Of a stretch of 64,000 nucleotides of DNA, positions 2,786 through 62,400 are shown piece by piece. Position 1 is the first letter of the stretch. Every line of letters begins with the position of its first letter. The position numbers and the translations under genes are program-made. The notes under the pieces were generated by a model that had not been told where the DNA came from, did no database searches, and saw only the letters and a program-made list of their open reading frames with translations. Source of the stretch: Escherichia phage vB_Ec-M-J; the sequence record OQ718158.1. One strand, given 5' to 3'.

Positions 2786-2816
2786 AAAAAGCACCCAAAT
2801 GGGTGCTTTGTCTATT
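2786..2816. terminator. bidirectional intrinsic terminator between convergent genes
   Basis: Hairpin gcaccc-aaat-gggtgc flanked by an A-run 5' and T-rich 3'. Confidence 0.6.
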
Positions 2817-4002
2817 TTGGTGTTTGTAACGTTACAAACGAACCAGTTAATGTATCAGAAGTTGGGTTTATACCAGTATACATAACACCATTACTTATTA
2901 CTATTGCAGTAAGGTTGTAAGACATTGAAATGAAATCATCAGAATCAGTTAGTGAATTTGGAATTAAACTAAATGTAAGTGTTGGATTTGGATTGGAACC
3001 CAAACGAGTTGTATAGTTTCCACCAGTTCCATATAAACCATCTGATTTTTTTATACCTATACCAAAATATCCTTCTGAATATACTGGATACAATTTATAA
3101 TCAGTTCCCATATCAAATGCAATCAAAGTTGGGTTTACAACGTTTCCTGATGCAGAAACACCATTACCCAAGTTACCAGCTATTCGGTTACCACATACCC
3201 ACATTTCATCAACCGATGTTGTAGTATTACGTAATACCATATATGTACCATAGTAAGAAACCATAATATCCGAAACGGTGTATGATGCTTTTGTATATTC
3301 TGTGAACGTTGTTAAGGCAGTTGTGTTACCCGTTCCAAGCTGCCCATTATTATTGATACCACATCGAAAAAGTGTATTATTATTTTTTAATATCCAAGTT
3401 CCATTATCAGCAGCTATACATATTTTTTTAACATCAGTACTAATTAATGTGAATTTAGTTACTGCTGATGTGTTTCCAGTTCCTAATGTACCATTAGCAT
3501 TTCTACCCATTCCGTAAGCTGAACCATCATTGAAATGTATAATTATATTATCCACCCAAACATGTATATCTTTTATATTATTGAGTTGTTCTTCTGTAAA
3601 TACACTAGAAAAGTAACTAGTTCTATCTACATAAACATTCGAGAATGATGACACACCCCCAAATGCATAAGTCGTGGTTGAGCATGATAAAAATTCATCA
3701 GTTTTCGTTTGTAATAATATAAATCGTCCAAAGGAACACCAAGCGTTTTTAACATTACTTCGGATAAGGGTCCAGGTAGTACGGTTAGTGCTTACATCAC
3801 CATCACCAAAAATATAATTTGAACCAGCACCACTACCACCACCACCACCAATTCCCCATAACTCACCATTATCATATAATATTATGATAGCAGAATAGTT
3901 GCTCGTTGTTGGTGTTAGTATTTTAGATATATTTGGTGTTGGAGCACGATTTCCGTACTTCACCATTCTTGCAAATGGAAGCATTTTAAGTCTCCTTATC
4001 AT
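2812..4002 (-). CDS. RCC1-like beta-propeller repeat protein
   Basis: 396 aa; repeated G-x-N-x-x-GQLGTGNT-type motifs (four or more); Gly-rich GGGGGSGAGS segment; only minus-strand gene in this plus-strand block. Confidence 0.5.
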   Translation of the reverse strand: MIRRLKMLPFARMVKYGNRAPTPNISKILTPTTSNYSAIIILYDNGELWGIGGGGGSGAGSNYIFGDGDVSTNRTTWTLIRSNVKNAWCSFGRFILLQTKTDEFLSCSTTTYAFGGVSSFSNVYVDRTSYFSSVFTEEQLNNIKDIHVWVDNIIIHFNDGSAYGMGRNANGTLGTGNTSAVTKFTLISTDVKKICIAADNGTWILKNNNTLFRCGINNNGQLGTGNTTALTTFTEYTKASYTVSDIMVSYYGTYMVLRNTTTSVDEMWVCGNRIAGNLGNGVSASGNVVNPTLIAFDMGTDYKLYPVYSEGYFGIGIKKSDGLYGTGGNYTTRLGSNPNPTLTFSLIPNSLTDSDDFISMSYNLTAIVISNGVMYTGINPTSDTLTGSFVTLQTPK

Positions 4003-10139: not shown

Positions 10140-10146
10140 AAATTTT

Positions 10147-10186: not shown

Positions 10187-10209
10187 GCTAGAAAATACAG
10201 GAGGAAATT

Positions 10210-10776
10210 ATGGTCAAATCTTTACTACCACCACCAAAGCGTCACAAAATCCAAGAAATGAAAGACCAACGTACATTAAAGATGTACAACAATTTAGTTA
10301 AGTTACTGTGTAAAAGTCCATCGCTCAAAGCAGAGTTTAAAACTGATGATGACCGCAAAGCACTAATTGAGATGAAGTATATGCTCAGTAAAATGTCCTT
10401 TTACAAATTTGTAAAAGAATACGCATCTGACCCATTTAGTCCTCGTTGGAGAACCAAACCAAGAGAGTTTTTTTTCGGTGGTTCATATACTGATATCATT
10501 CAAGATACTGTGATAGGCGTAGAGTTCGAGATTGATTATGAGCCGAATGGTGTGGAAAACTTGCTGATTGAGAAACGTTTACCAAGTGAAGAAGAAATTT
10601 ATGTTTATGCAAGAAAACTTTCAACTTACAGTTCAAGAATTACTCTAGGCAAGTTAGATTCATTTATTATTTTCTATATACGTGTTGGCGTAGACAAAAT
10701 GGTAACTAAACTCAATGAACTTTCATTACAACAAAAACAGATTAATGCATACAAAGACATTACTGATTTATACTAA
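10210..10776 (+). CDS. hypothetical protein, tandem paralog family member 1
   Basis: 188 aa; shares an N-terminal module (KSPSLKAEFKTDDDRKALIEMKYMLSK) with the next two genes. Confidence 0.55.
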   Translation: MVKSLLPPPKRHKIQEMKDQRTLKMYNNLVKLLCKSPSLKAEFKTDDDRKALIEMKYMLSKMSFYKFVKEYASDPFSPRWRTKPREFFFGGSYTDIIQDTVIGVEFEIDYEPNGVENLLIEKRLPSEEEIYVYARKLSTYSSRITLGKLDSFIIFYIRVGVDKMVTKLNELSLQQKQINAYKDITDLY

Positions 10777-10782
10777 TGAGGA

Positions 10783-11304
10783 ATGAATATGTTTTTTGGC
10801 CCAGTTGGAAAACAAAACAGTACTTTAATTTGGCATGAAATTATCTTTAAAATTATATCAAAAAGTTTCACACTTAAAGATATCATCAATACAGATCAAG
10901 ATCGTCGTGTTCTGTTAGAAGCAAAATATAAATTGAGCAAACACCCTTTGCTACCATTAATCATTGATTACGTTAATGATTATGAATCCAGTCGTTGGAA
11001 GTTTGAAGAAGGCGGTTTATTTCGTGGAAAAACATTCTACGGTGCGGAACGATATGTATTCAGTGATGCAACAAATGGCGTTAAGTTTGCTATTAGAAAC
11101 TTTAACTCCAAAGAAAATGATTATCTTGAAAGTGGAGTGAAAGTATATATCGATAACAATAGCAATGTTCTAACATATGACGAATCACTAATTATGTTAC
11201 AAATAATGCGTGGCGTTGAAGGTGTAAGACACAATCTTACTAATTTGAAAATTCAGCAAAATGATATACATAATAGACAGAAAATTAAGGGTTTATATAA
11301 ATGA
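10783..11304 (+). CDS. hypothetical protein, tandem paralog family member 2
   Basis: 173 aa; module KSFTLKDIINTDQDRRVLLEAKYKLSK. Confidence 0.55.
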   Translation: MNMFFGPVGKQNSTLIWHEIIFKIISKSFTLKDIINTDQDRRVLLEAKYKLSKHPLLPLIIDYVNDYESSRWKFEEGGLFRGKTFYGAERYVFSDATNGVKFAIRNFNSKENDYLESGVKVYIDNNSNVLTYDESLIMLQIMRGVEGVRHNLTNLKIQQNDIHNRQKIKGLYK

Positions 11305-11810
11305 TTTCATTTTTCAAAAAGAAAGAAAAAGTTGATGAAACTGGATTAGAATCGTTTCTATGGACTCTTATCATCAAAAAAAGTCCATTGATAAAAGAAT
11401 ATGCCATCAATGATACTAATAGAAAAACTATCATTGAATACAAATACGAATTAGCAAAATGTGATCCGATTGTTTACCACTTCGTAAAGTACTGTTCTGA
11501 AAATTTATCGGATATCACTATTGAACACGAGTCAGTACCAATGAGTTTTCCTTATGGAGATTGGGTATATACTTATGATATTTTTGATGGGTCTAACGGA
11601 TTCAGTTTTTATTTCACATCAAATAAAGCATATGTTCGAATCAAAACAGATATAGGTTGGGTATTGCATAGCACAAATAAAGAAGATTATAATTTATTAG
11701 CTGATGTATACAGAAGTGTTAAGAACTCAAAGGATATTGATGAAAGAATTAAAAAGCAAAATCGTATTTCTTTATCAATAGAAACATACAAGTCAAAGTA
11801 TGGTGGTTAA
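11301..11810 (+). CDS. hypothetical protein, tandem paralog family member 3
   Basis: 169 aa; module KSPLIKEYAINDTNRKTIIEYKYELAK; 4-nt overlap with upstream gene. Confidence 0.55.
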   Translation: MISFFKKKEKVDETGLESFLWTLIIKKSPLIKEYAINDTNRKTIIEYKYELAKCDPIVYHFVKYCSENLSDITIEHESVPMSFPYGDWVYTYDIFDGSNGFSFYFTSNKAYVRIKTDIGWVLHSTNKEDYNLLADVYRSVKNSKDIDERIKKQNRISLSIETYKSKYGG

Positions 11811-11812
11811 CT

Positions 11813-12214
11813 ATGACTACAGTTGATGATATCTACAGTACTATACGAAATATGAGTACAGATAGAAAAGTGTTTGGTGACAAAGAAAAGTCAAAATGTT
11901 ATGGCATCGATTCTTTTGATATTATTTCATACGAATATAATAACAACGGGACCAGTTCACTAAACATTGTGTGTCCACGAGATCCAGAAAATAATTTCAT
12001 GTACGTTGAAATTAACAATGATGGTATGTTCTTTACTAAAGTATATAAAGGTGGGAAAGAATACGAACCCATCGAAGTAATGAATGAAGAGAAATTCTTC
12101 CAAGAAGATACCATCATCAATCTTGGATTTAGTTACAATGACTATCAAGTACTGGATCATGATTTTAAACGATACTATAATGGTTTTCTAAAGGAGTTAA
12201 CGATTTACTTATGA
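11813..12214 (+). CDS. hypothetical protein
   Basis: 133 aa ORF tightly packed in the operon. Confidence 0.5.
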   Translation: MTTVDDIYSTIRNMSTDRKVFGDKEKSKCYGIDSFDIISYEYNNNGTSSLNIVCPRDPENNFMYVEINNDGMFFTKVYKGGKEYEPIEVMNEEKFFQEDTIINLGFSYNDYQVLDHDFKRYYNGFLKELTIYL

Positions 12215-13449
12215 AAAACAATTTTCTAGAACAAACTATTGTGAAACACTTAGCTGGTTCACAGGCGTATGGCACAAGCACACCAGAAAGTGATACCGAT
12301 TATCGTGGTATCTTCCTTGCAAACAAAGAATTTATCCTAACTCCTTTTTTTAATGTTAAGGAAGTTTCAGATCCTTCTGAAGAAGATACTAAATTTTATG
12401 AAGTCAATCAGTACTTAAGTCTGTATACTGAAGCTAACCCAAACATTCTTGAATCACTATGGGTTAAACCTGAACACATCGTAGAAAGTACTGAAATCTA
12501 TGACTATCTACGCTCATTCAATCAGCAATTATTGAGTTCAAAGATTGCACACTCATACAGTGGATATGCATACAATCAGGTTAAGCGTATGTCTAATCAC
12601 CACGGCTGGCTCGATAAGGAACGAATTGCTGAACGTAAACTAAATGAAATTTTAGAAGAACATCCAGTTGACGAAGTACTTTCATGGATGTATGATACAT
12701 TCCCGCAGTATTTGGTAGACCGTTTGAATAAATCCAATCTTCACCCATTCAATGCTACAAAAATTGATTTTGAAAAATACATGCGTGATACTTCATTACA
12801 ATTAGTTTCAACACAAGCATTGAAACAATATCATTTTGTACGTTTAGTACATAATTATAGTACTGATAAAGTATTAGATCGTGATTTCAATTTATTGAAT
12901 TACAATTCAGGGTATGAACTAATCCATTACGGTGAAAACATCTTTGGGGTAATTATCAACCCGAATGAAAGTACAGTGAATGCTGATGGTTCACTACGTT
13001 ACTTCAACAAAGAACGTACTACAGAAGAATTGAAAGTTCGTCCTGAACTCATTGTAAAATTCAATGAAAAGGAATACAAAGAAAATAGTGAGAACCGTAA
13101 GAGTTATCACAAATGGAAGCAGAATCGTAATGCCAAACGTGCTATTCTTGAATCACACCACGGTTATGACTGCAAACATGCTATGCATACAATCAGGCTG
13201 CTGAATACAGCACAGGAAGCACTTGAAACTGGTATCATCCAAGTTCACCGACCGGATGCTGCTATGTTGATGGACATTCGTAACGGGAAGTGGTTGTATC
13301 AAGAAGTTATGGATTATTTCAACGAAAAGGTTGACTACATCCGAAATGTGGCGTATCATAAGACCCATCTACCGAAGCGACCAAACATAAAGTTGGCTAC
13401 GAAGGTACTATTAGATATCCGTGAAATGCAATGGTACAGTAAAAAATAA
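12211..13449 (+). CDS. Pol-beta superfamily nucleotidyltransferase (PF10127-like, tentative)
   Basis: 412 aa; N-terminal GSQAYGTSTPESDTDYRG matches a GS...SDxD nucleotidyltransferase signature. Confidence 0.5.
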   Translation: MKNNFLEQTIVKHLAGSQAYGTSTPESDTDYRGIFLANKEFILTPFFNVKEVSDPSEEDTKFYEVNQYLSLYTEANPNILESLWVKPEHIVESTEIYDYLRSFNQQLLSSKIAHSYSGYAYNQVKRMSNHHGWLDKERIAERKLNEILEEHPVDEVLSWMYDTFPQYLVDRLNKSNLHPFNATKIDFEKYMRDTSLQLVSTQALKQYHFVRLVHNYSTDKVLDRDFNLLNYNSGYELIHYGENIFGVIINPNESTVNADGSLRYFNKERTTEELKVRPELIVKFNEKEYKENSENRKSYHKWKQNRNAKRAILESHHGYDCKHAMHTIRLLNTAQEALETGIIQVHRPDAAMLMDIRNGKWLYQEVMDYFNEKVDYIRNVAYHKTHLPKRPNIKLATKVLLDIREMQWYSKK

Positions 13450-13459
13450 GAGGATTGTT

Positions 13460-13876
13460 ATGCTAAACGAACAAATCAAAGACGCACTACGTGTACTGAA
13501 TCGCGAAGTTAACCGCATCCAGAAAAGTACTGATCGTTATAAACTAATGCATGAACTTAGACTTTCGTTGGAAGCTATCAATAATGGCGAATGGTATCTT
13601 GAACCAGAATATCGCACACGTGAACTAACTGACGTTGAAAAAGCAATTGTCAAATTCATTACAAGTCGCGACAAAAATGCATCCGAAAAAGATGTATCAA
13701 TGAACTTCCATCTTACTAAATGTGAAGTCGTGGAAAAATTTAAATTCGATTGGCTTGACTGGATTGAAATGATCATGGAACTTGAAGAAGAATTCAAAGT
13801 TGAAGTTGATTTGGAATACGAGAATGAAAACACTAAACTGTATAAACTCGTAGATCATATTCAAAAAATGTTGTAA
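13460..13876 (+). CDS. hypothetical protein with ACP-like C-terminal helix motif
   Basis: Start moved to the Met with RBS agagga (track start 13421 overlaps upstream gene); DWLDWIEMIMELEEEFKVEV resembles ACP DSLDTVELVMALEEEF but lacks the Ser. Confidence 0.45.
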   Translation: MLNEQIKDALRVLNREVNRIQKSTDRYKLMHELRLSLEAINNGEWYLEPEYRTRELTDVEKAIVKFITSRDKNASEKDVSMNFHLTKCEVVEKFKFDWLDWIEMIMELEEEFKVEVDLEYENENTKLYKLVDHIQKML

Positions 13877-13893
13877 ACATATAATATAGTACA

Positions 13894-13904
13894 CTCTAAA
13901 TAAT
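13894..13904 (+). promoter_or_regulatory. late-promoter-like motif CTCTAAATAAT
   Basis: About 26 nt upstream of the 13930 start. Confidence 0.35.
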
Positions 13905-13929
13905 ATTACCAACTATAGGAGATGTTATT

Positions 13930-14304
13930 ATGAGTGTACTAGAAATTATTGTTTCAAAAGTTTTAATACCATATTGGAAACCAATTTTGGTAGTAGGAGT
14001 AATGGCAGGTTGTGTTTACGGTGGATGGTCAGCAAATACTTATTATACTGGTTATAAAGAAAGTATTGACCAAAAAATAGAAAAGAAAGTTGATTCTGCA
14101 CTCGCTAAGATGCAGCAAGAAAATGCAAAAAACTATATAGAAACCAAAAAGATAATGCAAGATAATGCTAAAGTTATCGAGACACAAGTGCCTATTATAG
14201 TAGAAAGAGAAGTTTACAAAAATGTATGTCTAGATGAAGATGGCGTTAAACTTCTGAATGAACTTAAACAGAATTCCCTTGCAGCGAGGAATAAATTCAA
14301 ATGA
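13930..14304 (+). CDS. i-spanin-like protein (N-terminal TM plus periplasmic coiled-coil)
   Basis: 124 aa; hydrophobic segment near residues 12-32, then charged helical region; lipoprotein gene follows with 4-nt overlap. Confidence 0.5.
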   Translation: MSVLEIIVSKVLIPYWKPILVVGVMAGCVYGGWSANTYYTGYKESIDQKIEKKVDSALAKMQQENAKNYIETKKIMQDNAKVIETQVPIIVEREVYKNVCLDEDGVKLLNELKQNSLAARNKFK

Positions 14305-14615
14305 AATACGCTTTAGTATTTGCAATTTCTTTTCTATTAATTAGTGGTTGTGCTGAAGAAATTAAGTATCAACCTAAACCAATTGTAGAACAAGAAATCT
14401 TACTTGAACGTTGTGACGAAAATACACCACTACCAAGTAAAATCATGGTCGATAAAAACGGGTTCAGAGGATATGATGGTGCTGAAATTCTTGCAGTACT
14501 CGTAAAATGGGATGCAATGTACAATGACTGTGCACTAAAACATGATGCATTAATTAAAACTATTCGTGATTTACAAAATCAAGATGTTAAGGTTAAAATT
14601 AAATCCGAGGATTAA
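14301..14615 (+). CDS. o-spanin-like outer-membrane lipoprotein
   Basis: 104 aa; signal peptide with lipobox LISGC; position after the i-spanin-like gene. Confidence 0.5.
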   Translation: MKYALVFAISFLLISGCAEEIKYQPKPIVEQEILLERCDENTPLPSKIMVDKNGFRGYDGAEILAVLVKWDAMYNDCALKHDALIKTIRDLQNQDVKVKIKSED

Positions 14616-50685: not shown

Positions 50686-51465
50686 TTAACGAGTACGCTC
50701 AGGAATATCAATACCTTCATATACCCAAATTGCAGCTTGTTGTGCTTTATAAATTGCATCAGGATCTAAATCATCAACTGCATCAATGTCAGCACATTGC
50801 TTATTACACTCTGCAAATAGAGATTCAACCATAGCAAATGCTTCAGTGTATAGTTGAGTCATTTCAGCAGCAGATAGTTTTACAATTGCGTCATCAAGGA
50901 AAATCGAAACGCTATCAGAACCGGAAGTTACTTGTGTATAATAATTAAGAAGCATTTGACGACCAGCTAGATCAGTACTATAACGATGACCGTTAAACAT
51001 ATAACCAGCATTAATACGATCACTACGAGATGATACTGTGCGTGCTTTCAGATCAGATTTAACTGCTGCAATGTCCATATCAACATAATTATAAGTTTTC
51101 AGTACTGTTAACTCTTTATATTCACCTTCTGCTTCTTCTAAGAATGTGATGACTGGTTGATTACTATCTTGTAGTTTAATATATTCCAAATTCTCATTAA
51201 TTGCGTTCACATTACCAACATTCTTATATTCCAACCACCAGAAACCCTCTTCTTTACGAACAGCGTTATTAGGTTCAATTTCAGAACCATCTTTACTTGA
51301 AATACCATAAAGTGCACGAATATCGCTGTACAAATAACGATATGTTTGTTCATCATCAGGAGTTGCCCCAGGGCGTTCTTTTAAACCCTTAACACCAACT
51401 GGGTTGGAGATGATGTTACCCAATTCATAATTTTCTTTAGAACTACCTTTTACATATGTAAACAT
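50686..51465 (-). CDS. hypothetical structural protein
   Basis: 259 aa; between fibre genes. Confidence 0.5.
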   Translation of the reverse strand: MFTYVKGSSKENYELGNIISNPVGVKGLKERPGATPDDEQTYRYLYSDIRALYGISSKDGSEIEPNNAVRKEEGFWWLEYKNVGNVNAINENLEYIKLQDSNQPVITFLEEAEGEYKELTVLKTYNYVDMDIAAVKSDLKARTVSSRSDRINAGYMFNGHRYSTDLAGRQMLLNYYTQVTSGSDSVSIFLDDAIVKLSAAEMTQLYTEAFAMVESLFAECNKQCADIDAVDDLDPDAIYKAQQAAIWVYEGIDIPERTR

Positions 51466-51530: not shown

Positions 51531-54500
51531 TTAAGCAGTACGTTGTGCAATGAACAAATCAGTAACTGGACTTACACCATCATAAATTACTTGGTAAATG
51601 GTCACGCTACCAGCAGTTTTGTTTAGTTCACCATCAACAACAGCATAAGTACCATCAGTTGTAAAGTTTCTGTTACCAGTTGCATCTTGTTTAACATAGA
51701 TGTATACTGATGCAGCTTTACCGCCACCAATTAGGCCAGTAATTGGAGCCAACGTGGTATCTTGGTCTAGAGTGATGAAGTATACGTTACTTGTACCATC
51801 TGGAGTCCATGTTCCGGTTGGAGCAATTACTGATGATGTAACTTGAGTTGGGATTACATCATACTTTTTGGTAGTTACTGTTGTAGTAGTTAAGTTAGCA
51901 TTAGTAGTGGTTAGTTCACCAGTCACTGTTACTGCCTTATCAAACACAGCATTTTCTTTAAATGATGAAGTTGCATTAACGGTTAGAACGTCAGCCGCTG
52001 CGTCACCTAATGTTACGTTACCATTCACAGTTAGTGCTCCACCTACTGTTGCGTTACCAGTAATGGATGCACTTGCAAGTGTAGCCAAACCTGATGTTGT
52101 AATTGTAGAAACGGTTGTTGCAGCGAATCCAGCAGTACCAGTTGCAGTGATATTGCCACCCACTGTTATGTTACCCGCAGTGGTCACTGCACCAGTGATA
52201 TTTGCACCACTTGACATAGTTACTAAACCACCAAATGAACCAGTAGTAGTAACTTCTAAAGTATTACCTTTAAGTAATCCAGTTGCAGTGATGGAAGTAC
52301 CAGCAGTAATTGCAGTACCTGCACTTAATGTGGTTCCAGCAGCTACGTTGTTAGCTGCAGTCAAAGACTTAACAGCTACATCGGAATCTGCTTGGTTCAA
52401 TTGTGCATTTAGTACGCCAGTAACAGTGAAGTTACCGTTGTTTACAACGTTACCATTAACGATTAGGTTGTTGTTTTGTGAACCGACTTCACCAATGGTT
52501 GCAGCCTTGGATATAAGTGATGCACCAGATGTAATATCACTTGCTGCCTGTATTGTTTGTTCGGCAACAATTGCATATGGTTCAATTGTTTGACCACTAA
52601 CATCAATATCAGCATTTATACCACCGTCAACACGCAAGGAACCTGCGATGAACGTATTTGGAAAAATCTGTACTGTTTCTGGGTTTTCACCAGTTTGTGT
52701 ACCAATTACAACATTTGCTCCAGTTTTCACTGCACCAGCAGTTGTGATAGAACCGAGTGTAGTAGCACCAGTTACTGATAGTGTTCCACCTATGGTTGCA
52801 TTGTTTGTTACTATTAAGCCAGTACCTGTACCATTAAAGGTAGACGATGGTGCTGAAATTGCACCAGTAACACCAAGAGAACCACCAACAGTTGCATTAC
52901 CATCTGAATGAATGGTTGTTGCGACAGAAATACTATTTGCAACAACATCAGTACTGGAAAGATCCAAACTACCAGGAGTTAATGTACCAGCAACAGTTAC
53001 ATCATCACTGAATGTAGCTGCACCAGTTACACCTAGTGTAGTACTAAAGTTACCGGATGTTGATGTAATACCAGATGTTACAATAGATCCCGCAGTTGCA
53101 GTTCCAGTTACATCAAGTGTTCCACCTATGGTTGCATTATTAGTAACAGATAGAGCAGTTCCTGAACCATTTAGTGTTACAGATGGAGCAGATACTACAC
53201 CAGTTACACCCAAATCGCCACCAACAGTTGTGTTACCGTCGGAATGCATGGTTGTTGCTACAGAAATACTATTTGCAGTAATATCAGATGATGCTAAATT
53301 CAAACCACCAGCAGGTGTAAATGTACCATTTACGGTTACATCCCCAGTAAAGGTTGAATCTCCTGACACATCAACTGTTGTTGTCGAAACACCACCATTT
53401 AAGTTTGTTAAACCAGTGACACTTAGTGTTCCACCAACCGTTGCGTTGTTGTTAACAGTTAAGCCAACACCTGGTCCAGTTAAGGACGCAGAAGGACTTG
53501 TTATTGCCCCACCAAAAGATGCAGTTCCAACAGAACTTATAGTTGTGGAAGATGATAATGATTTAACTTCAACATCAGATGCTGATAAATCAACACCACC
53601 ACTTGCAGTAAGTAATCCATCAACTTGTAAGGTTCCACCAAGTGTTGCTGCACCAGTACTAGATAGTGTATTTGTACTTACTGATGTTGCAGACAAACTA
53701 CCAGTATTAACAGTACCTAGTGTTGTTATGCCAGTTACGTTTAATGTACCATTTAAAACAGACGCCTTTGTAACAGACAAACTATCAATTGTAGCTGGAC
53801 CAGAAACATCGATAGTTTCTGCATCTAAACTACTTAATGTTGATGCACCAATTACATTAAGTGTTGTTGCAGCTTCTACACTGTTTACCACAAGATCAGC
53901 ACCAGCAAGATTCAAACCACCTTCTGGTATAAATTCACCTTTAACAGTTAATTTCTGAACAGTACTGTCACCTGAAATATCCAACGCAGATGCTGCTACG
54001 CCACCATTAAATGTACTTTGACCAGTAACTGCTAAAGTTGTTCCAACTGTTGCACTGTTTAGTGCTGCATTACCACTTATTGATGCGGCAGGTGCGGTTA
54101 TTGTACCTTCATCCAACTGCAACCCACCAGAAACAACTTGAACACCACCAGTTGCTACTGTAACTTTACCAGCGGTATTAACAGTACCAGATGTGGATAC
54201 TGCACCGACAAGAGTTGAAGTACCATTAACTGTCAAATTACCAGAAATTTCAGGACTACCAGTAACAATACCAGTTGTTAGAACCAAATCTCCACCAACA
54301 GTTGTTGAACCAGTACTTGCTAGTGTTGAAGCTGTGATATCAGCGGAACTTAGATCAATAGATCCATCAACACTAATATCCCCACCAACATGCACGTTTC
54401 CTAATGAATCTAACGATTTAACGGTCACATCAGTTGTGCTTAAGTCAATTATACCAGCAGTTAGTGTGCCAGATACAGCCAAATCACCAGTGATTGCAGT

Positions 54501-57497
54501 GCTTTTTGCAATTTCGATAGTATCATCAGCAGTTGTAATACTACCCACAGTTAGTGTACCGTTTATCGTTGCATTATTATCAACAACCAAACCTTCACCA
54601 ATAGCATTTAACGCAATACTAGTAGCAGTTACTTGAGTAGCTGATACACTCTGTAGTGTGCTATTTCCAGTTGCTTCAATGGTTGCTGCTCTAACCGAAC
54701 CAATTGTTGCATCTGTACTAATTAGTTTTGGTAAAGTACTTGAATTTACTGAATCACTTACTGTGATTACACCAGTACTATTAATGGTTTCAGCACTTGT
54801 TAGTGATTTAACAGTTACGTCAGCAGAACTAAGGTCAACTGTTCCTGATACAACTAAATCACCACCAATATTTGCACCTTCAGTTGTGGTAATTGATTTA
54901 GCATTAATATCAGTTGTTGCTAAGTCAATTGAACCAGGAGTTAAAACACCACTAACAGTTAGGTTACCTGTAATTGTTGTATCATTACTAATTTCAACAC
55001 CACCAGCATTAAAAATAACTGGCGTTTCAACAGAAATAGATTTCACATTACCACTTGCGACGACAGATGCTAATGAAGATGCTCCTGTAATATTTAAAGC
55101 AACACTGTTTGTTGTTGTAGCAGTTATAGTTCCAATACTTGCTTCAGTACTTGATAATTTAGGTAGAACACTAGTACCATTTAGATCATTACTAACGACT
55201 GGACCAGTACTTGTTAGTGATTTAACAGTTACATCTGCCGCACTAAGGTCAACTGTTCCTGATACAACTAAATCACCACCAATATTTGCACCCTCGGATG
55301 TGGCAATTGATTTAGCAGAAACGTCAGTTGTGCTTAGGTCAATTGAACCAGGAGTTACCGAACCACTTACTGTCAAGTTTCCATCAATTAAAGTATTATT
55401 TGTAATAGATACACCTGCTGGGTTAGAAATACTATCAGCTTGAACTACAACAGCAGTAACTTTACCAGAAGAATTTAAGTTAACAACACTAGAATTACCA
55501 CTAACTGTCAAATCTGTAATGGTTGCATCACTAACAGTTGCGTTTGTTGCAGTTAAATCAGTACTTGATAATTTAGGTAGAACACTAGTACCAGTTAGAT
55601 CATTACTAACGACTGGACCAGTACTGGTTAATGATTTAACAGTTACGTCTGCTGCACTCAAATCAACCACACCATCAACAGTTAAGTTACCATTAACAGT
55701 TACACCCTCTGTTACAGTTACAGACTTAGCAGCAACGTCAGTTGTGCTTAGGTCAATTGAACTAGGAGTTAGCGTTCCTTGAATAACAACATCATTTTCA
55801 AATGTGGTATTACCGGAAATTGTTGGCGAAGTTAATGTAGTTGTTGAAATTGAATCTGCACTTACGGAATCTGCACTTATTTCACCCGTTGATGTGATTT
55901 TTGGTGAAGTAATTTCAGTTGATGCTGAAATTGTTGGTGCTGAAACTAAAGTTGTTGCAGATACTGAATTTGAGTTAATAGTATTGGTATTTAGTACATT
56001 ACTAAGAACCATCGAACTACCATTAATTTCACCAGTTACACCAAGAGTTCCACCGATTGACGCATTACCAGTGCTTTCTAAGGTCACTGCTTTCACCAAT
56101 GTTGATGCATTAATCGAATTAGGAGTTAGGTCTTGACCACTTACATCAACAGTTAGGCCAGTTACTACACCAGTAAAGTCAACATCGTTTAAAATAGTCT
56201 TACCACCAACTCTTAGTTGTGGTGTGTTTGGGTCTTGTACCGCATTACCAGTAATTGTTAGGTAATCTAGTTTGTTTAGACCATTACCTGTGATACCGTA
56301 AGTAGCCAAAGATGCGTTACCAAAAGTTGCTGTTTTTAGAACATTTAATGTCGCTGGAGAAACAACTTCAGATTGTATTTCGTTTTGTAGTATTACTGTT
56401 GGACGTAAACCAGTACCAGTATATGCAAACGAAATTCTAGCAGCCGGATCTGCTACGTTTTGTCCTAAACTTACTGCTTTAAGTGTCGCAGTACTATTAA
56501 AACCAGTAATGTTACCACCTAAAGATACAGCACCACCTAATGAAGATGTACCAGAAACATTTAATGTTAGTGCGTTCAAATCATCCAATTGGAATGTACC
56601 ACCTAATGTTCCAGCGATATTAATATCATTAAAGTTTGCAGTACCTGAACTTTCGATATTAGGAATGGTTGCAGTTCCAGTTACTTCAAAATCATGAACT
56701 TTAGTTTTTCCAGATTTTACCTCCAACAATGGTGTTGTTGGGTCTTGAACAGCATTACCTGAAACTGTCAAGTAATCTAGTTTGTTTAGACCATTACCAG
56801 TGATACCATATGTTGAAAGTGATGCGTTACCAAATGATGCAGTAGAAAGAACTGTCAATTTTGCTGGTGACATCAACTCTGATTGAATTTCGTTTTGTAA
56901 TAGTACAGTTGGTCTTTGACCAGGAACAGTATAGCCAAAGTTAAGTCTATACGCTTGACCTGCCGCATCCGGTCCAATACGAACATCACGGAAGTTTGCA
57001 GTACTGTTTATACCAGTAATGTTTGCACCCAACGTAACTGCACCTTGTAGACCAGTAGTCCCAGACACATTAAGTGTTGTAGCATTAATATCAGAAAGAT
57101 TAAAAGTACCACCAAGTGTACCAGAAATGTTTACATCTTTAAAAGTTGCTGTGCCAGTTGAAGTAATATCAGTTGATTCAACAGAATCAAATGATCCTGA
57201 ATTAGCTTCTAAGTTATCAAATTTTGCAGTTGTTCCGACAGCAGCAGTAATGTTTCCTGCAAATGTCGCAGCACCTGAAACATCAGCACCAGCGGATAAG
57301 GTTGCCTTACCAGCAACATCCAATGTACCTGTGACATTCACAGTACCAGCGGTAATTGCAGTGAATACTGCGTTAGCAAAAGACACTTCCCCATTAACCG
57401 TTAGGTCATTACTGAATACTGCATTACCTTTGACCAAAAGATCCTTACCTACCGTGGAATTACCAGATACGTCAAGATCCGTTTTAATCGAGTACAT
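51531..57497 (-). CDS. giant repetitive fibre protein (intact paralog)
   Basis: 1988 aa; Thr/Gly/Ser/Val-rich beta-helix-like repeats with internal duplications of about 170 aa. Confidence 0.6.
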   Translation of the reverse strand: MYSIKTDLDVSGNSTVGKDLLVKGNAVFSNDLTVNGEVSFANAVFTAITAGTVNVTGTLDVAGKATLSAGADVSGAATFAGNITAAVGTTAKFDNLEANSGSFDSVESTDITSTGTATFKDVNISGTLGGTFNLSDINATTLNVSGTTGLQGAVTLGANITGINSTANFRDVRIGPDAAGQAYRLNFGYTVPGQRPTVLLQNEIQSELMSPAKLTVLSTASFGNASLSTYGITGNGLNKLDYLTVSGNAVQDPTTPLLEVKSGKTKVHDFEVTGTATIPNIESSGTANFNDINIAGTLGGTFQLDDLNALTLNVSGTSSLGGAVSLGGNITGFNSTATLKAVSLGQNVADPAARISFAYTGTGLRPTVILQNEIQSEVVSPATLNVLKTATFGNASLATYGITGNGLNKLDYLTITGNAVQDPNTPQLRVGGKTILNDVDFTGVVTGLTVDVSGQDLTPNSINASTLVKAVTLESTGNASIGGTLGVTGEINGSSMVLSNVLNTNTINSNSVSATTLVSAPTISASTEITSPKITSTGEISADSVSADSISTTTLTSPTISGNTTFENDVVIQGTLTPSSIDLSTTDVAAKSVTVTEGVTVNGNLTVDGVVDLSAADVTVKSLTSTGPVVSNDLTGTSVLPKLSSTDLTATNATVSDATITDLTVSGNSSVVNLNSSGKVTAVVVQADSISNPAGVSITNNTLIDGNLTVSGSVTPGSIDLSTTDVSAKSIATSEGANIGGDLVVSGTVDLSAADVTVKSLTSTGPVVSNDLNGTSVLPKLSSTEASIGTITATTTNSVALNITGASSLASVVASGNVKSISVETPVIFNAGGVEISNDTTITGNLTVSGVLTPGSIDLATTDINAKSITTTEGANIGGDLVVSGTVDLSSADVTVKSLTSAETINSTGVITVSDSVNSSTLPKLISTDATIGSVRAATIEATGNSTLQSVSATQVTATSIALNAIGEGLVVDNNATINGTLTVGSITTADDTIEIAKSTAITGDLAVSGTLTAGIIDLSTTDVTVKSLDSLGNVHVGGDISVDGSIDLSSADITASTLASTGSTTVGGDLVLTTGIVTGSPEISGNLTVNGTSTLVGAVSTSGTVNTAGKVTVATGGVQVVSGGLQLDEGTITAPAASISGNAALNSATVGTTLAVTGQSTFNGGVAASALDISGDSTVQKLTVKGEFIPEGGLNLAGADLVVNSVEAATTLNVIGASTLSSLDAETIDVSGPATIDSLSVTKASVLNGTLNVTGITTLGTVNTGSLSATSVSTNTLSSTGAATLGGTLQVDGLLTASGGVDLSASDVEVKSLSSSTTISSVGTASFGGAITSPSASLTGPGVGLTVNNNATVGGTLSVTGLTNLNGGVSTTTVDVSGDSTFTGDVTVNGTFTPAGGLNLASSDITANSISVATTMHSDGNTTVGGDLGVTGVVSAPSVTLNGSGTALSVTNNATIGGTLDVTGTATAGSIVTSGITSTSGNFSTTLGVTGAATFSDDVTVAGTLTPGSLDLSSTDVVANSISVATTIHSDGNATVGGSLGVTGAISAPSSTFNGTGTGLIVTNNATIGGTLSVTGATTLGSITTAGAVKTGANVVIGTQTGENPETVQIFPNTFIAGSLRVDGGINADIDVSGQTIEPYAIVAEQTIQAASDITSGASLISKAATIGEVGSQNNNLIVNGNVVNNGNFTVTGVLNAQLNQADSDVAVKSLTAANNVAAGTTLSAGTAITAGTSITATGLLKGNTLEVTTTGSFGGLVTMSSGANITGAVTTAGNITVGGNITATGTAGFAATTVSTITTSGLATLASASITGNATVGGALTVNGNVTLGDAAADVLTVNATSSFKENAVFDKAVTVTGELTTTNANLTTTTVTTKKYDVIPTQVTSSVIAPTGTWTPDGTSNVYFITLDQDTTLAPITGLIGGGKAASVYIYVKQDATGNRNFTTDGTYAVVDGELNKTAGSVTIYQVIYDGVSPVTDLFIAQRTA
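56117..57137 (-). repeat. intragenic tandem repeat (two units of about 510 bp) in the 1988-aa fibre gene
   Basis: Conserved core ggtaatctagtttgtttagaccattacc at 56262-56287 and 56772-56797; similar units in the 1049-aa gene. Confidence 0.7.
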
Positions 57498-57592
57498 AGA
57501 GTCCCCTCCTATAACGATGAACTATATATTCATAACCCATCTTTTGTTAATATACTTATATTTAGTTTAATTCACAAAAACACTATTATCTA

Positions 57593-57628
57593 ATACAAAA
57601 GAAAAAGCCAACTAAAAAAGTTGGCTTT
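57593..57628 (-). terminator. intrinsic terminator (minus strand)
   Basis: Minus-strand agccaact-ttttt-agttggct followed by ttttcttttgt. Confidence 0.6.
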
Positions 57629-57646
57629 AATTATTAATTTAAAATG

Positions 57647-59395
57647 TTATACACGTTGTGCAACGAAGGTATCAAACACAGTACTGAAACCATCATAGAT
57701 TACTTGGATAATACTTGTTTGACCAACTACAGCACTTACTGTACCAGAAACTACAGAGTATGCACCACCGAAGGTGAAAGTAGTATCAGCAACAGTTGGA
57801 GTTACATAGATATACACTGAACATGCTTGACCACTACCAATTAGACCCGCGATGGAATCCATTGTAACACTTTGGTCAAGAGTTAAGCGATATACGTTAG
57901 TAGTACCATCTGGTGTCCAAGTACCACCTACAGCAGCAGTAGAAGCAGTAACACTAGCAGGGATAACAGAATATTTCTTAGTTACCATGTTGTTTGTAGT
58001 GAAGTTTGCAGTGGTGGTGTTAATAGAACCAGTCACTGTTAGGTTCTTATCAAATGTTGCGTTCTCTTTAAATGTAGATGTTGCATTTACAGTTAAAGTA
58101 TCAGCAGCAGCATCACCAATCACAGTGTTACCATTTGCAGTTAATGTACCACCTACAGTTAGAGCACCAGTTACAGATGCACTTGCAAGGGTAGCTAAAC
58201 CTGATGTTGTAATGGTAGAAACGGTTGTTGCACCGAATCCAGCAGTACCAGTTGCAGAGATATTACCACCTACTGTTAGGTCACCAGCAGTGATACCAAC
58301 AGTACCAGTGATGTTTGCACCACTTGACATAGTTACTGCACCACCAAATGAACCAGTAGTGGTGACTTCTAACGAATTACCTTTTAGTAAGCCTGATGCA
58401 GTGATGGATGTTCCAGCAGTGATTGAAGTACCAGCCGCAACGTTATTAGTTGCAGTTAAAGATTTAACAGCTACATCGGAATCTGCTTGGTTCAATTGTG
58501 CATTTAGTACACCAGTAACGGTGAAGTCACCATTAGTTACTACGTTACCATTAACAGTTAGGTTGTTGTTTTGTGAACCAACATCACCAATTGTTGCAGC
58601 TTTAGAAACGATGGTTGCACCAGAAGTAATGTTACCAACAGCAGATAGTGTTGCAGCAGCTTCAATTGCATATGGTTCTAGTGTTTGACCACTTACGTCG
58701 ATTTCAGCGTTAATACCACCGATTACACGCAATTTACCAGCAATATAAGTATCTGGAATGATCTGTACAGTTTCAGGTTGTTCACCAACTGGAGTACCAA
58801 CAGTTAGGGTTGTACCAGTTTTCACTGCACCAGTAGCTGTTAGTGAAGATACAGTAGTTGCACCAGTAACACCTAGAGTTCCAGTTACACCCAAATTACC
58901 ACCAACTGATGCGTTTGCAGTAGAAGTTAAACTTCCAACAGTTGCTAGACCAGATGCAGTCACAGTAGAAGTACTAACACCACCACTTAGAGTACTTAGG
59001 CCAGTTGCATTGATAGTTGTCGCAGTAGTTAGACTATTAGCAGTAATGTCTGCACCGCTTAGGTCAAGACCACCTTGTGGGATCAATTCACCTTGGACAG
59101 TTAGTTTCTGAACAGTACTGTCACCAGAAACTGTTAGTGATGTCGCAGATACACCTGCTAGAGTAGAAGCACCAGTTACACCTAAAGTTCCAGTAATGGA
59201 AGTTCCTGCTAGAGTAGAAGCACCAGAAACGTTAATTGTGTTAGTATTGATACCACCATCAACTACCTGAATACCACCAGTACTCACTGTTACTTTCTTA
59301 CCGATATTAACAATATCAGTTAGGTTAACAGCACCAGTTACACCAAGAGTTCCACCGATTGTTGTATTACCAGAGATAGCTGGGCTACCAGTCAC
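57647..59395 (-). CDS. fibre protein C-terminal part (paralog, frame-disrupted)
   Basis: 582 aa from a GTG; frame open upstream to 59434; collinear with the C-terminal third of the 1988-aa protein. Confidence 0.5.
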   Translation of the reverse strand: MTGSPAISGNTTIGGTLGVTGAVNLTDIVNIGKKVTVSTGGIQVVDGGINTNTINVSGASTLAGTSITGTLGVTGASTLAGVSATSLTVSGDSTVQKLTVQGELIPQGGLDLSGADITANSLTTATTINATGLSTLSGGVSTSTVTASGLATVGSLTSTANASVGGNLGVTGTLGVTGATTVSSLTATGAVKTGTTLTVGTPVGEQPETVQIIPDTYIAGKLRVIGGINAEIDVSGQTLEPYAIEAAATLSAVGNITSGATIVSKAATIGDVGSQNNNLTVNGNVVTNGDFTVTGVLNAQLNQADSDVAVKSLTATNNVAAGTSITAGTSITASGLLKGNSLEVTTTGSFGGAVTMSSGANITGTVGITAGDLTVGGNISATGTAGFGATTVSTITTSGLATLASASVTGALTVGGTLTANGNTVIGDAAADTLTVNATSTFKENATFDKNLTVTGSINTTTANFTTNNMVTKKYSVIPASVTASTAAVGGTWTPDGTTNVYRLTLDQSVTMDSIAGLIGSGQACSVYIYVTPTVADTTFTFGGAYSVVSGTVSAVVGQTSIIQVIYDGFSTVFDTFVAQRV

Positions 59396-59417
59396 AACAC
59401 CAGTTGTTAGTACTAGA

Positions 59418-62400
59418 TCAGTACCAACAACTTGCTAGACTTGCAGCTACAAGGTTAGTTGCACTTAAGTCGAATGCACCATCTACAGTTAGGTTACCAG
59501 CAATGTGTGCGTTACCTAGTGAATCAAGAGATTTAACGGTTACATCAGTATTGCTTAGGTCGATTGAACCAGCAGTTAGTGTGCCAGATACAGCTAAATC
59601 ACCAGTGATTGCAGTATTTTTTGCAATATTAAGAGAAGCAGCAGTTGTTGTTAAAGAACCAACAGTTGCAATGCCACCAACAGATAATGCACCACCAACG
59701 TTTGCATCATTATCAACTTGAAGACCAAGGCCACCACCAGAAAATTCAGCACTATTAGCAGTTACTTGAGTAGCTGATACACTTTGTAGTACACTGTTGC
59801 CAGTTGCATTAATAGTACCTGCATTTACTGTAAAGAGTGTTGCATCAGTTGAAGTAATTTTAGGTAACGAACTAGTATTGGTTGAATCGGTAACGGTAAT
59901 AACACCAGCACTTGTAATTGTCTCTGCACTTGCAAGAGATTTCACAGACACATCAGCAGCACTTAGGTCAAAAGTACCATCAACTACTAAGTTTCCACCA
60001 ACATTAACATCAGCAGTAGTAGTTAGTGAGTTTGCAGTAATATCAACAGTTGTTAGATCAAGACCACCTTCAGGTTTGAATACACCAGTGACAGTTAGAT
60101 CTTTTGCCGCGACAACATTACTTGCTAGATTTAGTGTACCAGCACCAGCAGCTTCAGCTTGTAAAGTTGGAACTGTTACAGAAGTTGTGATTGTTGCAGT
60201 ACCAGAAGACAAACGCGAACCAGATACTACACCAGTACTAGTTAGTGTTCCTACTTTCGCTGCACCAGTAGTAGTTAGTGTGCCACCTGAAACGTCACCA
60301 GTTGCGGCAACAGAAGATGCATTAATTACACCAAATGTACTTGGGTTAGTTGCACTAACTGATTTTGTTACTACATCAGCAGCAGACAAATCAATAGCAC
60401 CAGTTACTGCAAGAGAACCACCAACAGTTACGTTACCAGTAGTTGTTAAAGAAGCAGCACTTACATCAGTAGTGCTTAAATCTATACTACTCGGAGTTAG
60501 TGTTCCAGTAATAGTTACGTTATTAGCAAAAGTAGTGTCACCAGTAATACTTGGAACAGTTAGTGAAGCCATAGAGCCAGCACCAGTTACTGCAAGAGAA
60601 CCACCAGATAGTGCACCAGCCGCAGTTACTGTATTACCAGATACAGACGCACCAGTAACATCACCAGTACTGGTTACTGAACTAGCAGTTAGGCCAGCTA
60701 AAGTAGTGTCCCCAGCAACAGATAGTGTTGTTGTAACATCAACTTTATTTGGGGCGATATCAAGACCATCAACATCAGCTTGGGCAGTTACACCAGTAGT
60801 TGTACCAGTTACTACTAAATCACGTACAGTTACAGTTTGACCAGTAACGCTAACATCACCACTGAAAGTACCTTTAGCAGCACTTACATCACCAGTGAAG
60901 GTAGCAGCAGTACCAGTTAGTGCACCAACAACATTAGCAGTTCCACCAACTTGTAGGTTAGTTCCTACTGTGGTTTGACCAACTGATTCAAGGGTTTGAC
61001 CTTTGATTGCTTCAGCAGCATCTACTGATTTAGGAGTTAGATCTTGTCCACTCACATCAACAGTTAGACCAGTTACAGTACCAGTGAATTCAACATCATT
61101 TAGTACTGATTTACCAGCAACTTGTAGTTGTGGGGTAGCTGGACTTTGTGTACCATTACCAGTAATAGATAGATAATCTAGTTTGTTTAGACCGTTACCT
61201 GTGATACCATAGGTTGCAAGAGATGCATCACCAAAGGTTGCAGTTTTTTGTACATTAAGTACTGCTGGAGATACTAGCTCAGACTGAATTTCATTTTGTA
61301 GAATTACAGTTGGACGTGCACCAGGGGCAGAATAAGCAAAACCATACTTAACGTTAGCATCGGCGGCGTTTTGTCCTAAACTTACTGCTTTAAAATTAGC
61401 AGTACTATTAGCACCGGAAATATCAGCACCTAAAGTTACACCACCAACAAGGCTAGTTAAACCGGATACAGTTAGTGTGTTTGCTTCAATATCATCAAGA
61501 CTGAAAGTACCACCGAGTGTACCAGATACGTTGATGTTATTAAAATTAGCAGTACCAGTACTTTCAATGTTAGGAATAGTTGCAGTTCCTGTTACTTCGA
61601 AATCATGAACTTTAGTTTTACCTGAAGTTACTTGTAATAGTGGAGTTGTTGGATCTTGAACAGAGTTACCAGATACTGTTAGGTAATCTAGTTTGTTTAG
61701 ACCATTACCAGTAATACCAAAAGTGGATAGTGACGAATCACCAAAAGATGCAGTTTTCAATACACTTAGGGTAGCTGGAGACATCAATTCTGATTGGATT
61801 TCGTTCTGTAGAATTACAGTTGGACGAAGACTTGGAGCAGAATAGTTAAAGCTCAAACGGTAGTTAGTGTTTGCAGCATTGGAACCAATTTTAATATCAC
61901 GGAAGTTTGCACTACTATTCACACCAGTAATGTTGGAACCTAATGTAACACCACCTTGTAGACTGGTTAAACCAGAAACAGTTAGAGTTGTTGCATTAAC
62001 ATCAGATAGACTAAATGTTCCACCTAGTGTACCGGAAATATTCACATCTTTAAAGTTTGCAGTTCCAGTTGATGTGATATCAGTAGTTGCAGTGTTTGTG
62101 AATGTTGCATCAGTTGCAGTTATTTTGTCAAATGCTGCGGTAGTGCCAGTTTCAGCAGTAATATTACCTTTAAATGAAGAAGTTCCAAGAACATCCATTG
62201 ATGCCACTTGGGTATCTTTTAGTACAGCAGTGCCAGCGGTTTGTGTTAGGTTACCTGCCATTGATACTGGGCTTTGGAATTGTGCATTAGAATTAATCGT
62301 TGCAGTATCAGAACCAACAGGCAAATTACCAATTACGGAATTACCATGAACTTCAATTCCACCATTCAATGATGCTTTACCAGCAACATCTAGTGTAGAT

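Follow-up and report, generated by a model that had tools for sequence, protein, structure and literature searches.

In the jumbo Escherichia coli phage vB_Ec-M-J (genus Asteriusvirus; OQ718158.1, given as the accession of this phage in PMC13070987), the second of two giant tail-fibre genes, fib2, is probably a freshly inactivated copy of a gene for a giant trimeric tail fibre, and its interruption an ordinary, very recent knockout rather than a programmed feature. A 14-nt deletion, together with an A>T substitution, is the sole lesion in fib2 relative to related phages. The deletion would put codon 1047 (of 1644) and those that follow it out of frame, and translation would end three codons on.

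Two fibre ORFs are halves of one gene

The 1049-aa ORF and the +1-frame ORF downstream of it (Table 1) are two halves of fib2. Residues 1–1046 of the N-terminal fragment are authentic and are identical to residues 1–1046 of the intact protein gp207 of phage Ecwhy_1 (1046/1046 aa, 100 %); the final three residues (CWY) are out of frame. Read mechanically, the C-terminal fragment is an ORF of 582 aa (57647..59395) with a GTG start that has no convincing ribosome-binding site, and it matches residues 1063–1644 of gp207 (581/582 aa, 99.8 %). Such identity of both fragments to one intact protein indicates that the resemblance of the halves to a single gene is not due to chance. The collinearity with the intact paralog, fib1, described in the initial annotation is borne out, the N-terminal fragment corresponding to fib1 residues 1–913 (49 % identity) and the C-terminal fragment to residues 1421–1986 (59 %). 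The readings at the junction are likewise as first described: one frame ends ...ASLASCWY followed by a stop, whereas the +1 frame reads QVVGTDLVLTTGVVTGSPAISGN... and is open until the stop at 57647, and fib1 at the matching place reads ...LASTGSTTVGGDLVLTTGIVTGSPEISGN.

Both fragments match the tail-fibre family phrog_4549 (E=4.7e-130 for the N-terminal and E=1.4e-54 for the C-terminal fragment), and no Pfam match was obtained for either fibre. A homologue search with the 582-aa fragment gave 8000 word-sharing candidates, none at E<=1e-30, perhaps because its repetitive Gly/Thr/Ser/Val-rich composition swamps the candidate list.

Each of the eight close relatives compared (Ecwhy_1, EC.P1, WPEC5, fEgEco12, WPEC3, BF17, Turkey3 and TH47) has the orthologue uninterrupted, as one ORF or annotated CDS of 1638–1652 aa. 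Conservation of two separate genes in the orthologues, which had been put forward as the finding that would speak against a broken gene, was observed in none of the relatives compared. Members of the family have one uninterrupted frame of ~1640–1990 aa. As fib2 is interrupted and all of its orthologues are intact, it appears from these alignments to be a disrupted allele of the family and not a functional member.

Table 1. Positions of features of the fib2 and fib1 region of vB_Ec-M-J, numbered within the window (the whole 64 kb stretch of DNA analysed)
Feature	Position	Strand	Details
fib2 N-terminal fragment	59418..62567	-	ORF of 1049 aa; GenBank WGM49547.1, 'tail fiber protein'
fib2 C-terminal remainder, +1 frame (VGTDLVL... 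to stop)	57647..59429	-	Mechanical ORF 57647..59395, 582 aa
Deletion junction	59429..59430	-	Relatives carry 14 nt, ACTGGTTCTACTAC, between these bases (MAFFT and blastn alignments)
A>T substitution	59423..59423	-	Found in vB_Ec-M-J only; a synonymous change (GGA>GGT) when read in the authentic frame
Premature TGA	59418..59420	-	Reached three out-of-frame codons after the junction; fib2 stops at codon 1050
13-bp inverted repeat with 5-nt spacer (AGTTGTTGGTACT/GATCT/AGTACTAACAACT)	59402..59432		Created by the deletion and the substitution
Terminator-like hairpin and T-run	57604..57628	-	Directly 3' of the fib2 stop
Promoter-like site (TTAACA-18-TATAGT) and shared TATATTAACAA motif	57521..57550	-	Upstream of fib1
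Intact paralog fib1	51531..57497	-	1988 aa; phrog_4549, E=3.3e-195

Nature of the lesion

The junction alignments took in the eight relatives and CMSTMSU, a ninth, error-ridden record, and all of these carry the 14 nt, which encode TGST+T on the gene strand. The relatives show no length variation at the site apart from the vB_Ec-M-J allele, and re-insertion of the 14 nt yields an ORF of 1644 aa. It had been proposed that removal of one base would restore a single fibre ORF. Deletion of any single base within 59433–59421 does give one ORF of 1639 aa, but comparison with the eight relatives identifies the lesion as a 14-nt deletion and not a 1-nt insertion. Across both halves, fib2 differs from the Ecwhy_1 gene by 12 synonymous differences and one conservative difference (S>T), with no further stop or indel. 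This ratio suggests that the break is very recent; both halves show a pattern indicative of purifying selection, and neither has begun to decay visibly.

Undecayed halves would equally be produced by an artefact. It is possible, though less likely, that all or most particles carry the intact 1644-aa gene, and that the 14-nt gap was introduced when the library was prepared, the consensus called or the genome assembled, or reflects a variant within the sequenced stock. The deletion is known from one deposited assembly, and no independent assembly with the same junction was found. An exact-pattern scan for the deleted junction gave no matches in IMG/VR, and a gapped-pattern scan for either the deleted or the intact form gave none in JGI metagenomes or GTDB genomes. 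A scan of IMG/VR for the intact junction was likewise empty, so these scans provide no independent evidence either way. The exact truncated 1049-aa product forms a cluster of one among ~15 billion proteins, and a search for contigs encoding it returned no record; the exact fibre proteins of Ecwhy_1, fEgEco12 and BF17 are also absent from this large protein collection. In addition, the site lies in a hairpin-prone stretch of a repetitive gene, and fib1 and fib2 are identical at 27 of 29 positions in a local island at the junction. However, fib1 also contains the 14-nt segment, so cross-mapping between the paralogs would not delete it. Loss of 14 nt of non-repetitive sequence is, moreover, not the usual type of error; homopolymer errors are usual, as in CMSTMSU. 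When the whole 64 kb window was scanned against Ecwhy_1, no coding region showed a further net frameshift; the other differences consist of homopolymer changes between genes, the boundaries of insertions, and alignment noise that is compensated. Of the options offered in the initial annotation, a decaying adhesin and an error both survive these comparisons, whereas a recoding site and a phase-variable gene do not find support (see below).

A quasi-palindrome at the deletion site

The form of the change also bears on its origin. The 13-bp stem comprises 12 Watson–Crick pairs and one G.T pair and is extended by the outer pairs GCA/TGT and AGTC/GACT; a repeat search detected it in the window and not in the intact sequence of Ecwhy_1. 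In the intact sequence the arms (TGTTGGAACT and AGTACTAACA) are imperfect, with eight Watson–Crick pairs, one G.T and one A.A; a 14-nt bulge precedes the arms, then AGT lies opposite ACT. The deletion adds three of three Watson–Crick pairs at the junction, and the A>T change repairs the A.A mismatch, which is the sole non-wobble mismatch of the inverted repeat. Predicted DNA folding energies are -11.9 kcal/mol (z=-3.2) for the window and -9.3 kcal/mol (z=-1.1) for the intact sequence. For stabilization of the hairpin, the A>T change ranks seventh of 240 possible substitutions. Among possible deletions of 1–30 nt, the observed one ranks 20th of 2955 on the T background and 428th of 2955 on the ancestral A background; the deletion alone has a modest rank of 130 of 4921.

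Both of the changes specific to vB_Ec-M-J are suggestive of a quasi-palindrome template-switch mutation, a mechanism described previously (PMC7202029). The deletion may have arisen by replication template switching or slippage at the quasi-palindrome, because the deleted 14 nt correspond exactly to the bulge of the imperfect hairpin. The A>T change may have come first, as a neutral synonymous change that stabilized the hairpin. The G.T pair at stem position 8 remained and was not converted to A.T, so that a single continuous templated tract does not account for both changes. The model is post hoc and, given the modest energy ranks relative to alternative deletions, is offered as suggestive. 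The palindrome-perfecting form, which is that expected of a polymerase template switch, mildly favours a polymerase-made mutation over an assembly error.

A gene-conversion or recombination scar, with the junction copied from another fibre repeat unit or from a different phage allele, is the least probable of the origins considered. Fibre genes are internally repetitive and mosaic, and fib1 of vB_Ec-M-J is a divergent allele, which speaks for such an event. The 64 kb window, however, contains no donor for AGTTGTTGGTACTGATC, the best other matches having three mismatches, and the flanks are otherwise identical to Ecwhy_1 over hundreds of bases.

It is very unlikely that the split is in use, be it through +1 or bypass recoding that gives some full-length fibre, through separate translation of a short proximal fibre and of a distal polypeptide made by re-initiation, or as a reversible on/off switch. 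The stop codon lies in the loop of a stable hairpin, superficially recalling recoding signals; a GTG is present 22 nt after the stop, and neither half has acquired further lesions. Against this, the arrangement is absent from all relatives, and the hairpin spans the stop and is not placed 5–9 nt downstream of it. There is no slippery codon, and there are no matched take-off and landing codons that would restore the frame. No codon of the 17-nt overlap (GCA AGT TGT TGG TAC TGA; CTA GCA AGT TGT TGG TAC TGA with the preceding codon) permits +1 re-pairing, and the nearest downstream TAC is followed by TAA. A recoding site, as initially suggested, finds no support in these codons or in the eight relatives, all of which have the additional 14 nt and a continuous frame. 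No good Shine–Dalgarno sequence precedes the GTG, in contrast to the two real fibre starts (fib1 and fib2), which have GGAGGG. Nor is there support for phase variation in the usual sense: no homopolymer, simple or tandem repeat that could mediate reversible switching was found at 59400–59450, and the loss of 14 nt of unique sequence cannot readily revert. With no repeat, no slippery site and no relative with two genes, neither recoding nor classical phase variation is supported. There is an even slimmer chance that the quasi-palindrome acts as a non-repeat 'soft switch', with recurrent knockout of the accessory fibre by template switching at the hairpin and occasional restoration by compensating indels, so that phage populations would contain virions with one or two fibre types, or that the 1049-aa stub becomes assembled and alters host range.

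Probable consequences of a loss of fib2

A recent knockout, the preferred reading, would leave as product a 1049-aa stub that keeps the N-terminal, virion-proximal part. The distal 36 % of the shaft would be missing from it, as would the tip domain that is conserved at the C-terminus. Beyond the stop, 1.75 kb would be untranslated, or at best weakly re-initiated. Such fibres are in general taken to depend on their C-terminal part for trimerization and receptor binding, so the stub is probably non-functional.

A single fibre gene occupies this locus in phages 121Q and phAPEC6, and the clade of vB_Ec-M-J, Ecwhy_1 and fEgEco12 has two tandem copies. The description of fib2 as a second giant fibre gene is correct; by comparison with 121Q and phAPEC6, it represents an additional copy that is lineage-specific. 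Their one fibre is closer to fib1 than to fib2 (55.6 % identity, 1663 bits for fEgEco12 fib1 versus 46.4 %, 979 bits for fib2). The paralog fib1 is probably transcribed independently of fib2, because it has its own promoter-like site and motif upstream; the TATATTAACAA motif is also present upstream of fib2, at ~62620. A polar effect on fib1 was considered as a major consequence of the lesion and was rejected in view of the terminator-like hairpin and promoter-like site between the genes. Loss of fib2 would be tolerated, since it is a lineage-specific duplicate whose paralog is intact and, it seems, separately transcribed.

For annotation and for users of the phage, the two 'tail fiber' ORFs of vB_Ec-M-J are best treated as a single, disrupted gene. 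Where its relatives display two giant fibre types, vB_Ec-M-J probably displays one, and this could add to differences in host range within a group of phages under consideration for therapy. The split in itself opens no new biological question. The lesion would also provide a clean natural case of a deletion that perfects a palindrome in a phage.

Comparison with known systems

The single-copy giant fibre of other Asteriusvirus members (121Q gp571, 1841 aa; phAPEC6 gp256, 180 kDa) shares with the vB_Ec-M-J fibres the locus, the flanking structural genes and the PHROG, and amino acid identity to 121Q gp571 is 46–61 %. The locus is syntenic, lying between conserved structural genes (equivalents of 121Q 570 and 572), and the flanking genes in the window (50686..51465 and 62686..63585) match virion structural PHROGs. 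The phAPEC6 protein has been found in virions by mass spectrometry (PMC7247149). In contrast to these single fibres, vB_Ec-M-J fib2 is the more divergent of two tandem copies, and is interrupted.

The only solved relative is a baseplate tail fibre of the Pectobacterium phage phiTE (PDB 9CUY chain g, 793 aa), with homology in the shaft repeats and in the C-terminal ~170 aa of the fib2 C-terminal fragment (E=8e-19 and 4.6e-10). According to the paper on PDB 9CUY, the phiTE long tail fibre is a trimer whose N-terminus anchors it to the baseplate wedge and gives way to an extended beta-helix. Chain g is half as long as fib2 and may be the LTF or another phiTE fibre. The distal part of the phiTE fibre was not resolved experimentally, so the structure gives no fold for the tip domain lost in fib2.

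Programmed frameshifts in phage tail genes, for example the -1 frameshift of lambda G/GT, also involve two overlapping frames in a tail-associated gene. Sites of this type carry a slippery heptamer and are shared by related phages, whereas the fib2 junction has no such heptamer and is not conserved.

Quasi-palindrome mutations have been described in T4 rIIB and yeast CYC1 (Ripley, 1982) and in E. coli thyA and lacZ reporters (PMC7202029). As in those systems, an ancestral asymmetric bulge has been lost exactly, complementarity has been gained, and a frameshift is combined with a base change. The vB_Ec-M-J case differs in that it is read from a single natural allele and not from a hotspot spectrum, and one G.T is left uncorrected, so that the deletion and the substitution may have happened independently.

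Of the known systems, the one most like fib2 is the frameshifted stf gene of laboratory lambda (lambda PaPa as compared with Ur-lambda; Hendrix & Duda, 1992, cited in PMC12617516). There, a strain-specific frameshift splits an accessory tail-fibre gene that the ancestor and related phages have intact, and the lambda mutant is viable because another receptor-binding device is intact. The same combination appears to be present in vB_Ec-M-J: a frameshift splits the gene, the relatives are intact, and fib1 would remain as the other adsorption device. The two cases differ in that the lesion in vB_Ec-M-J, a jumbo myovirus, removes 14 nt from the gene of a beta-helical fibre of 1644 aa, and the back-up is a tandem paralog instead of a central fibre.

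Structure of the interrupted fibre gene

Two large, similar genes lie on the minus strand of the window, the intact tail-fibre gene fib1 and a second copy, fib2, which is present as two ORFs (see table). The initial annotation of this split was accurate for both ORFs: the N fragment ends ...ASLASCWY before a TGA, the +1 frame, one base on, reads QVVGTDLVLTTGVVTGSPAISGN... and is open as far as a stop at 57647, and fib1 reads ...LASTGSTTVGGDLVLTTGIVTGSPEISGN at the matching place. Its proposal that removal of one base would restore a single fibre ORF was borne out by computation, which gives 1639 aa for any base from 59433 to 59421. The 1049-aa product matches GenBank WGM49547.1 exactly ('tail fiber protein', from the 378,573-bp contig of vB_Ec-M-J). 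OQ718158.1 is a member of the genus Asteriusvirus, a group of jumbo myoviruses (PMC13070987).

Megablast comparison of window positions 57600-62600 with 50,697 phage records identified nine that match the fib2 region at 97-99.5% identity (Ecwhy_1, EC.P1, WPEC5, CMSTMSU, fEgEco12, WPEC3, Turkey3, BF17 and TH47). Compared with Ecwhy_1, EC.P1 and WPEC5, fib2 has a single indel, a gap of 14 nt: at the junction, the relatives have GCAAGT-ACTGGTTCTACTAC-TGTTGGAACTG and the window has GCAAGT-TGTTGGTACTG. The 14 nt are present in eight of eight relatives and also in CMSTMSU, a record otherwise rich in one-base homopolymer errors. When they are put back, a 1644-aa ORF reading ...ASLASTGSTTVGTDLVL... 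is obtained.

Features of the fibre region and fib2 orthologues in related phages
Feature	Position	Strand	Description
fib1 (paralog)	51531..57497	minus	ORF, 1988 aa
fib2 N fragment	59418..62567	minus	ORF, 1049 aa
fib2 C fragment	57647..59395	minus	ORF, 582 aa counted from GTG
Deletion junction	between 59430 and 59429	minus	
Window-specific A>T	59423	minus	GGA>GGT, synonymous
Premature TGA	59420-59418	minus	met by shifted frame
Inverted repeat	59402-59414 / 59420-59432		repeat search: found in window, absent from intact Ecwhy_1
Terminator-like hairpin	57604-57628		between fib2 and fib1
Promoter-like site	57521-57550		between fib2 and fib1
fib2 of Ecwhy_1, EC.P1, WPEC5, fEgEco12			one annotated CDS, 4935 nt, 1644 aa
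fib2 of WPEC3, BF17, Turkey3			one CDS, 4917 nt, 1638 aa
fib2 of TH47 (record without annotation)			one ORF, 1652 aa

Two further ideas raised in the initial annotation, a translational recoding site and a phase-variable adhesin in the classical sense, are unsupported. The two-frame layout is unique to the vB_Ec-M-J record, the 17-nt overlap holds no codon able to re-pair in +1, the closest possible landing, TAC, directly precedes TAA, and the hairpin at the site overlaps the stop codon instead of standing downstream. Neither a homopolymer nor a tandem repeat occurs at the site, and what was lost is unique sequence. Ectopic conversion is likewise unsupported within the window.

In CMSTMSU (MH494197.1, 1199-11977), both fibre genes are broken up into 6-7 short CDSs labelled 'flagellar hook-length control protein'. 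The breakage of its fib2, the only one of the two that was aligned, stems from the loss of one or two bases at a time, for the most part within homopolymers; the fragmentation of these genes is a problem of sequencing quality, not biology. The TH47 orthologue (MT446416.1, 6479-11437) is 99% identical over the N-terminal 1046 aa and 87% identical in the distal part, which points to a distal end that may be diverging faster or may have been exchanged.

Age and reliability of the break

Deletion aside, fib2 differs from Ecwhy_1 gp207 at 13 positions. With each half read in its authentic frame, 12 of these are synonymous and the thirteenth is S1596T. Protein identity is 100% for the 1046 N-fragment residues and 581/582 for the C fragment. 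Under neutral decay, roughly three quarters of changes would be expected to be non-synonymous. Because so few are, fib2 must have stayed under purifying selection for essentially its whole history after divergence from Ecwhy_1. The break is either very young or physically absent.

The deletion could also be an artefact or a variant carried by only some of the sequenced phage, a reading that is somewhat unlikely but stays a serious rival, since the deletion is known from the vB_Ec-M-J record alone. Neither the deleted nor the intact form of the junction region turned up in pattern scans of IMG/VR, JGI metagenomes and GTDB genomes. The entire 64-kb window was also aligned to 70 kb of Ecwhy_1 and every indel listed. 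Diverged patches contain paired +1/-1 gaps that cancel within a few bases; elsewhere, length differences are confined to intergenic homopolymers (30709, 50680 and 51521), insertion boundaries and one in-frame GAA. In contrast to CMSTMSU, the window assembly is not generally prone to frameshifts.

A probable hairpin-associated route to the deletion

Folding reveals a strong hairpin at the fib2 junction. The window sequences AGTTGTTGGTACT and AGTACTAACAACT pair as a 13-bp stem (12 Watson-Crick pairs and one G.T) with a 5-nt loop, extended by GCA/TGT and AGTC/GACT. The intact sequence has only TGTTGGAACT as left arm, with an A.A mismatch, and the 14 nt absent from the window are exactly the bulge separating this arm from the AGT whose partner is the distal ACT. 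The deletion takes out the bulge and gains 3/3 Watson-Crick pairs, and the A>T change mends the sole non-wobble mismatch of the stem. Folded as single-stranded DNA, the window 66-mer reaches -11.9 kcal/mol (z=-3.2; 0/200 shuffles fold as well) and the intact 80-mer -9.3 kcal/mol (z=-1.1).

Quasi-palindrome template-switch mutagenesis was originally recognised in frameshifts of T4 rIIB and yeast CYC1; the growing strand takes the opposite arm as its template, which brings the repeat closer to perfection (PMC7202029). The fib2 changes probably show this pattern, with statistical support that is moderate and post hoc. By local stability, the deletion is 130th of the 4921 deletions of 14 nt that the gene allows, and the substitution 7th of 240 possible substitutions. 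Ranked against the 1-30-nt deletions at the locus (2955 in all), the observed one comes 428th if the background is ancestral and 20th with the T already present. The G.T pair is left unconverted, and therefore a single continuous templated tract does not account for both changes; the simplest path would be a synonymous A>T followed by a hairpin-guided deletion. The pattern is mild evidence for a polymerase-made mutation over a base-calling or assembly error.

Consequences for the fibre

Truncated fib2 retains 1046/1644 residues, including the N-terminal region common to both paralogs, and loses the distal 36% with its conserved C-terminal domain. Since the distal end of trimeric phage fibres bears receptor specificity and usually nucleates trimer folding, the stub would be non-functional or unstable. 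The GTG at 59395 is without a good ribosome-binding site; both genuine fibre starts have GGAGGG. Pfam gave no match for either fibre; fib1 and the two fib2 fragments each match PHROG 4549, 'tail fiber protein'. Among relatives, the sole solved structure is that of a 793-aa 'putative tail fiber protein' (chain g of PDB 9CUY/9MJN) from the baseplate reconstruction of Pectobacterium phage phiTE. It shares homology with shaft repeats in the N fragment (E=8e-19) and with the final ~170 residues in the C fragment (E=4.6e-10). The phiTE long tail fibre, which may or may not be chain g, is a trimer anchored by its N-terminus on the baseplate wedge and continuing as an extended beta-helix (PMC11972413). 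The 180-kDa gp256 of the Asteriusvirus phAPEC6, product of the single gene at the fib2/fib1 locus, has been found in virions by mass spectrometry (PMC7247149).

Where 121Q and phAPEC6 carry a single fibre gene (8838-14363 in each; 1841 aa in the 121Q type), the Ecwhy_1/fEgEco12/vB_Ec-M-J clade carries a tandem pair flanked by the same structural genes, so duplication took place within the genus. The 121Q protein is nearer to fEgEco12 fib1 (55.6% identity, 1663 bits) than to fib2 (46.4%, 979 bits), so fib2 is the extra copy. Given the terminator-like hairpin, promoter-like site and TATATTAACAA motif between the two genes, the last common to the fib2 upstream region, the premature stop is unlikely to affect fib1 through polarity. 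Intact fib1 may let the phage tolerate fib2 loss. At each fibre gene (57521-57640 and 62600-62680), a terminator-like hairpin of the upstream gene comes first and TATATTAACAA lies ~45 nt ahead of the GGAGGG ribosome-binding site; the motif may belong to the phage's late promoters.

Other differences in the window

Window fib1 is ~60% identical in amino acids to fib1 of Ecwhy_1 and fEgEco12 (1899 and 1906 aa). Its central half (about 52750-56120) has no megablast match in the 50,697 phage records, and adjoining fib2 is 99.5% identical in nucleotides; fib1 resembles a mosaic or exchanged allele peculiar to this phage. Immediately downstream, at 50686-51465 (minus strand), a 259-aa protein with DUF4376 (E=6.6e-9) and weak matches to small tail-fibre PHROGs could be a fibre-associated or assembly protein. 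Relative to Ecwhy_1, the window has a 1.24-kb insertion (2817-4056), carrying a 396-aa ORF (2812..4002, minus strand) with RCC1-like GxxGQLGTGN repeats, and a diverged patch at 23600-24700; Ecwhy_1 has extra sequence of about 640 nt at ~17675 and about 510 nt at 24803-24861. The fEgEco12 paper reports that 'chromosome condensation regulator' genes differ among such phages.

Comparison with known systems

The fib2 break is a fresh case of a known type of event in a little-studied phage group and no surprise to a specialist; it is useful for annotation and for host-range interpretation. Its mutational route is similar to Ripley's quasi-palindrome frameshifts. The closest analogue is the stf frameshift by which laboratory lambda lost the side tail fibres of Ur-lambda (PMC12617516): there too, one strain has as two ORFs an accessory fibre gene that its relatives keep intact.
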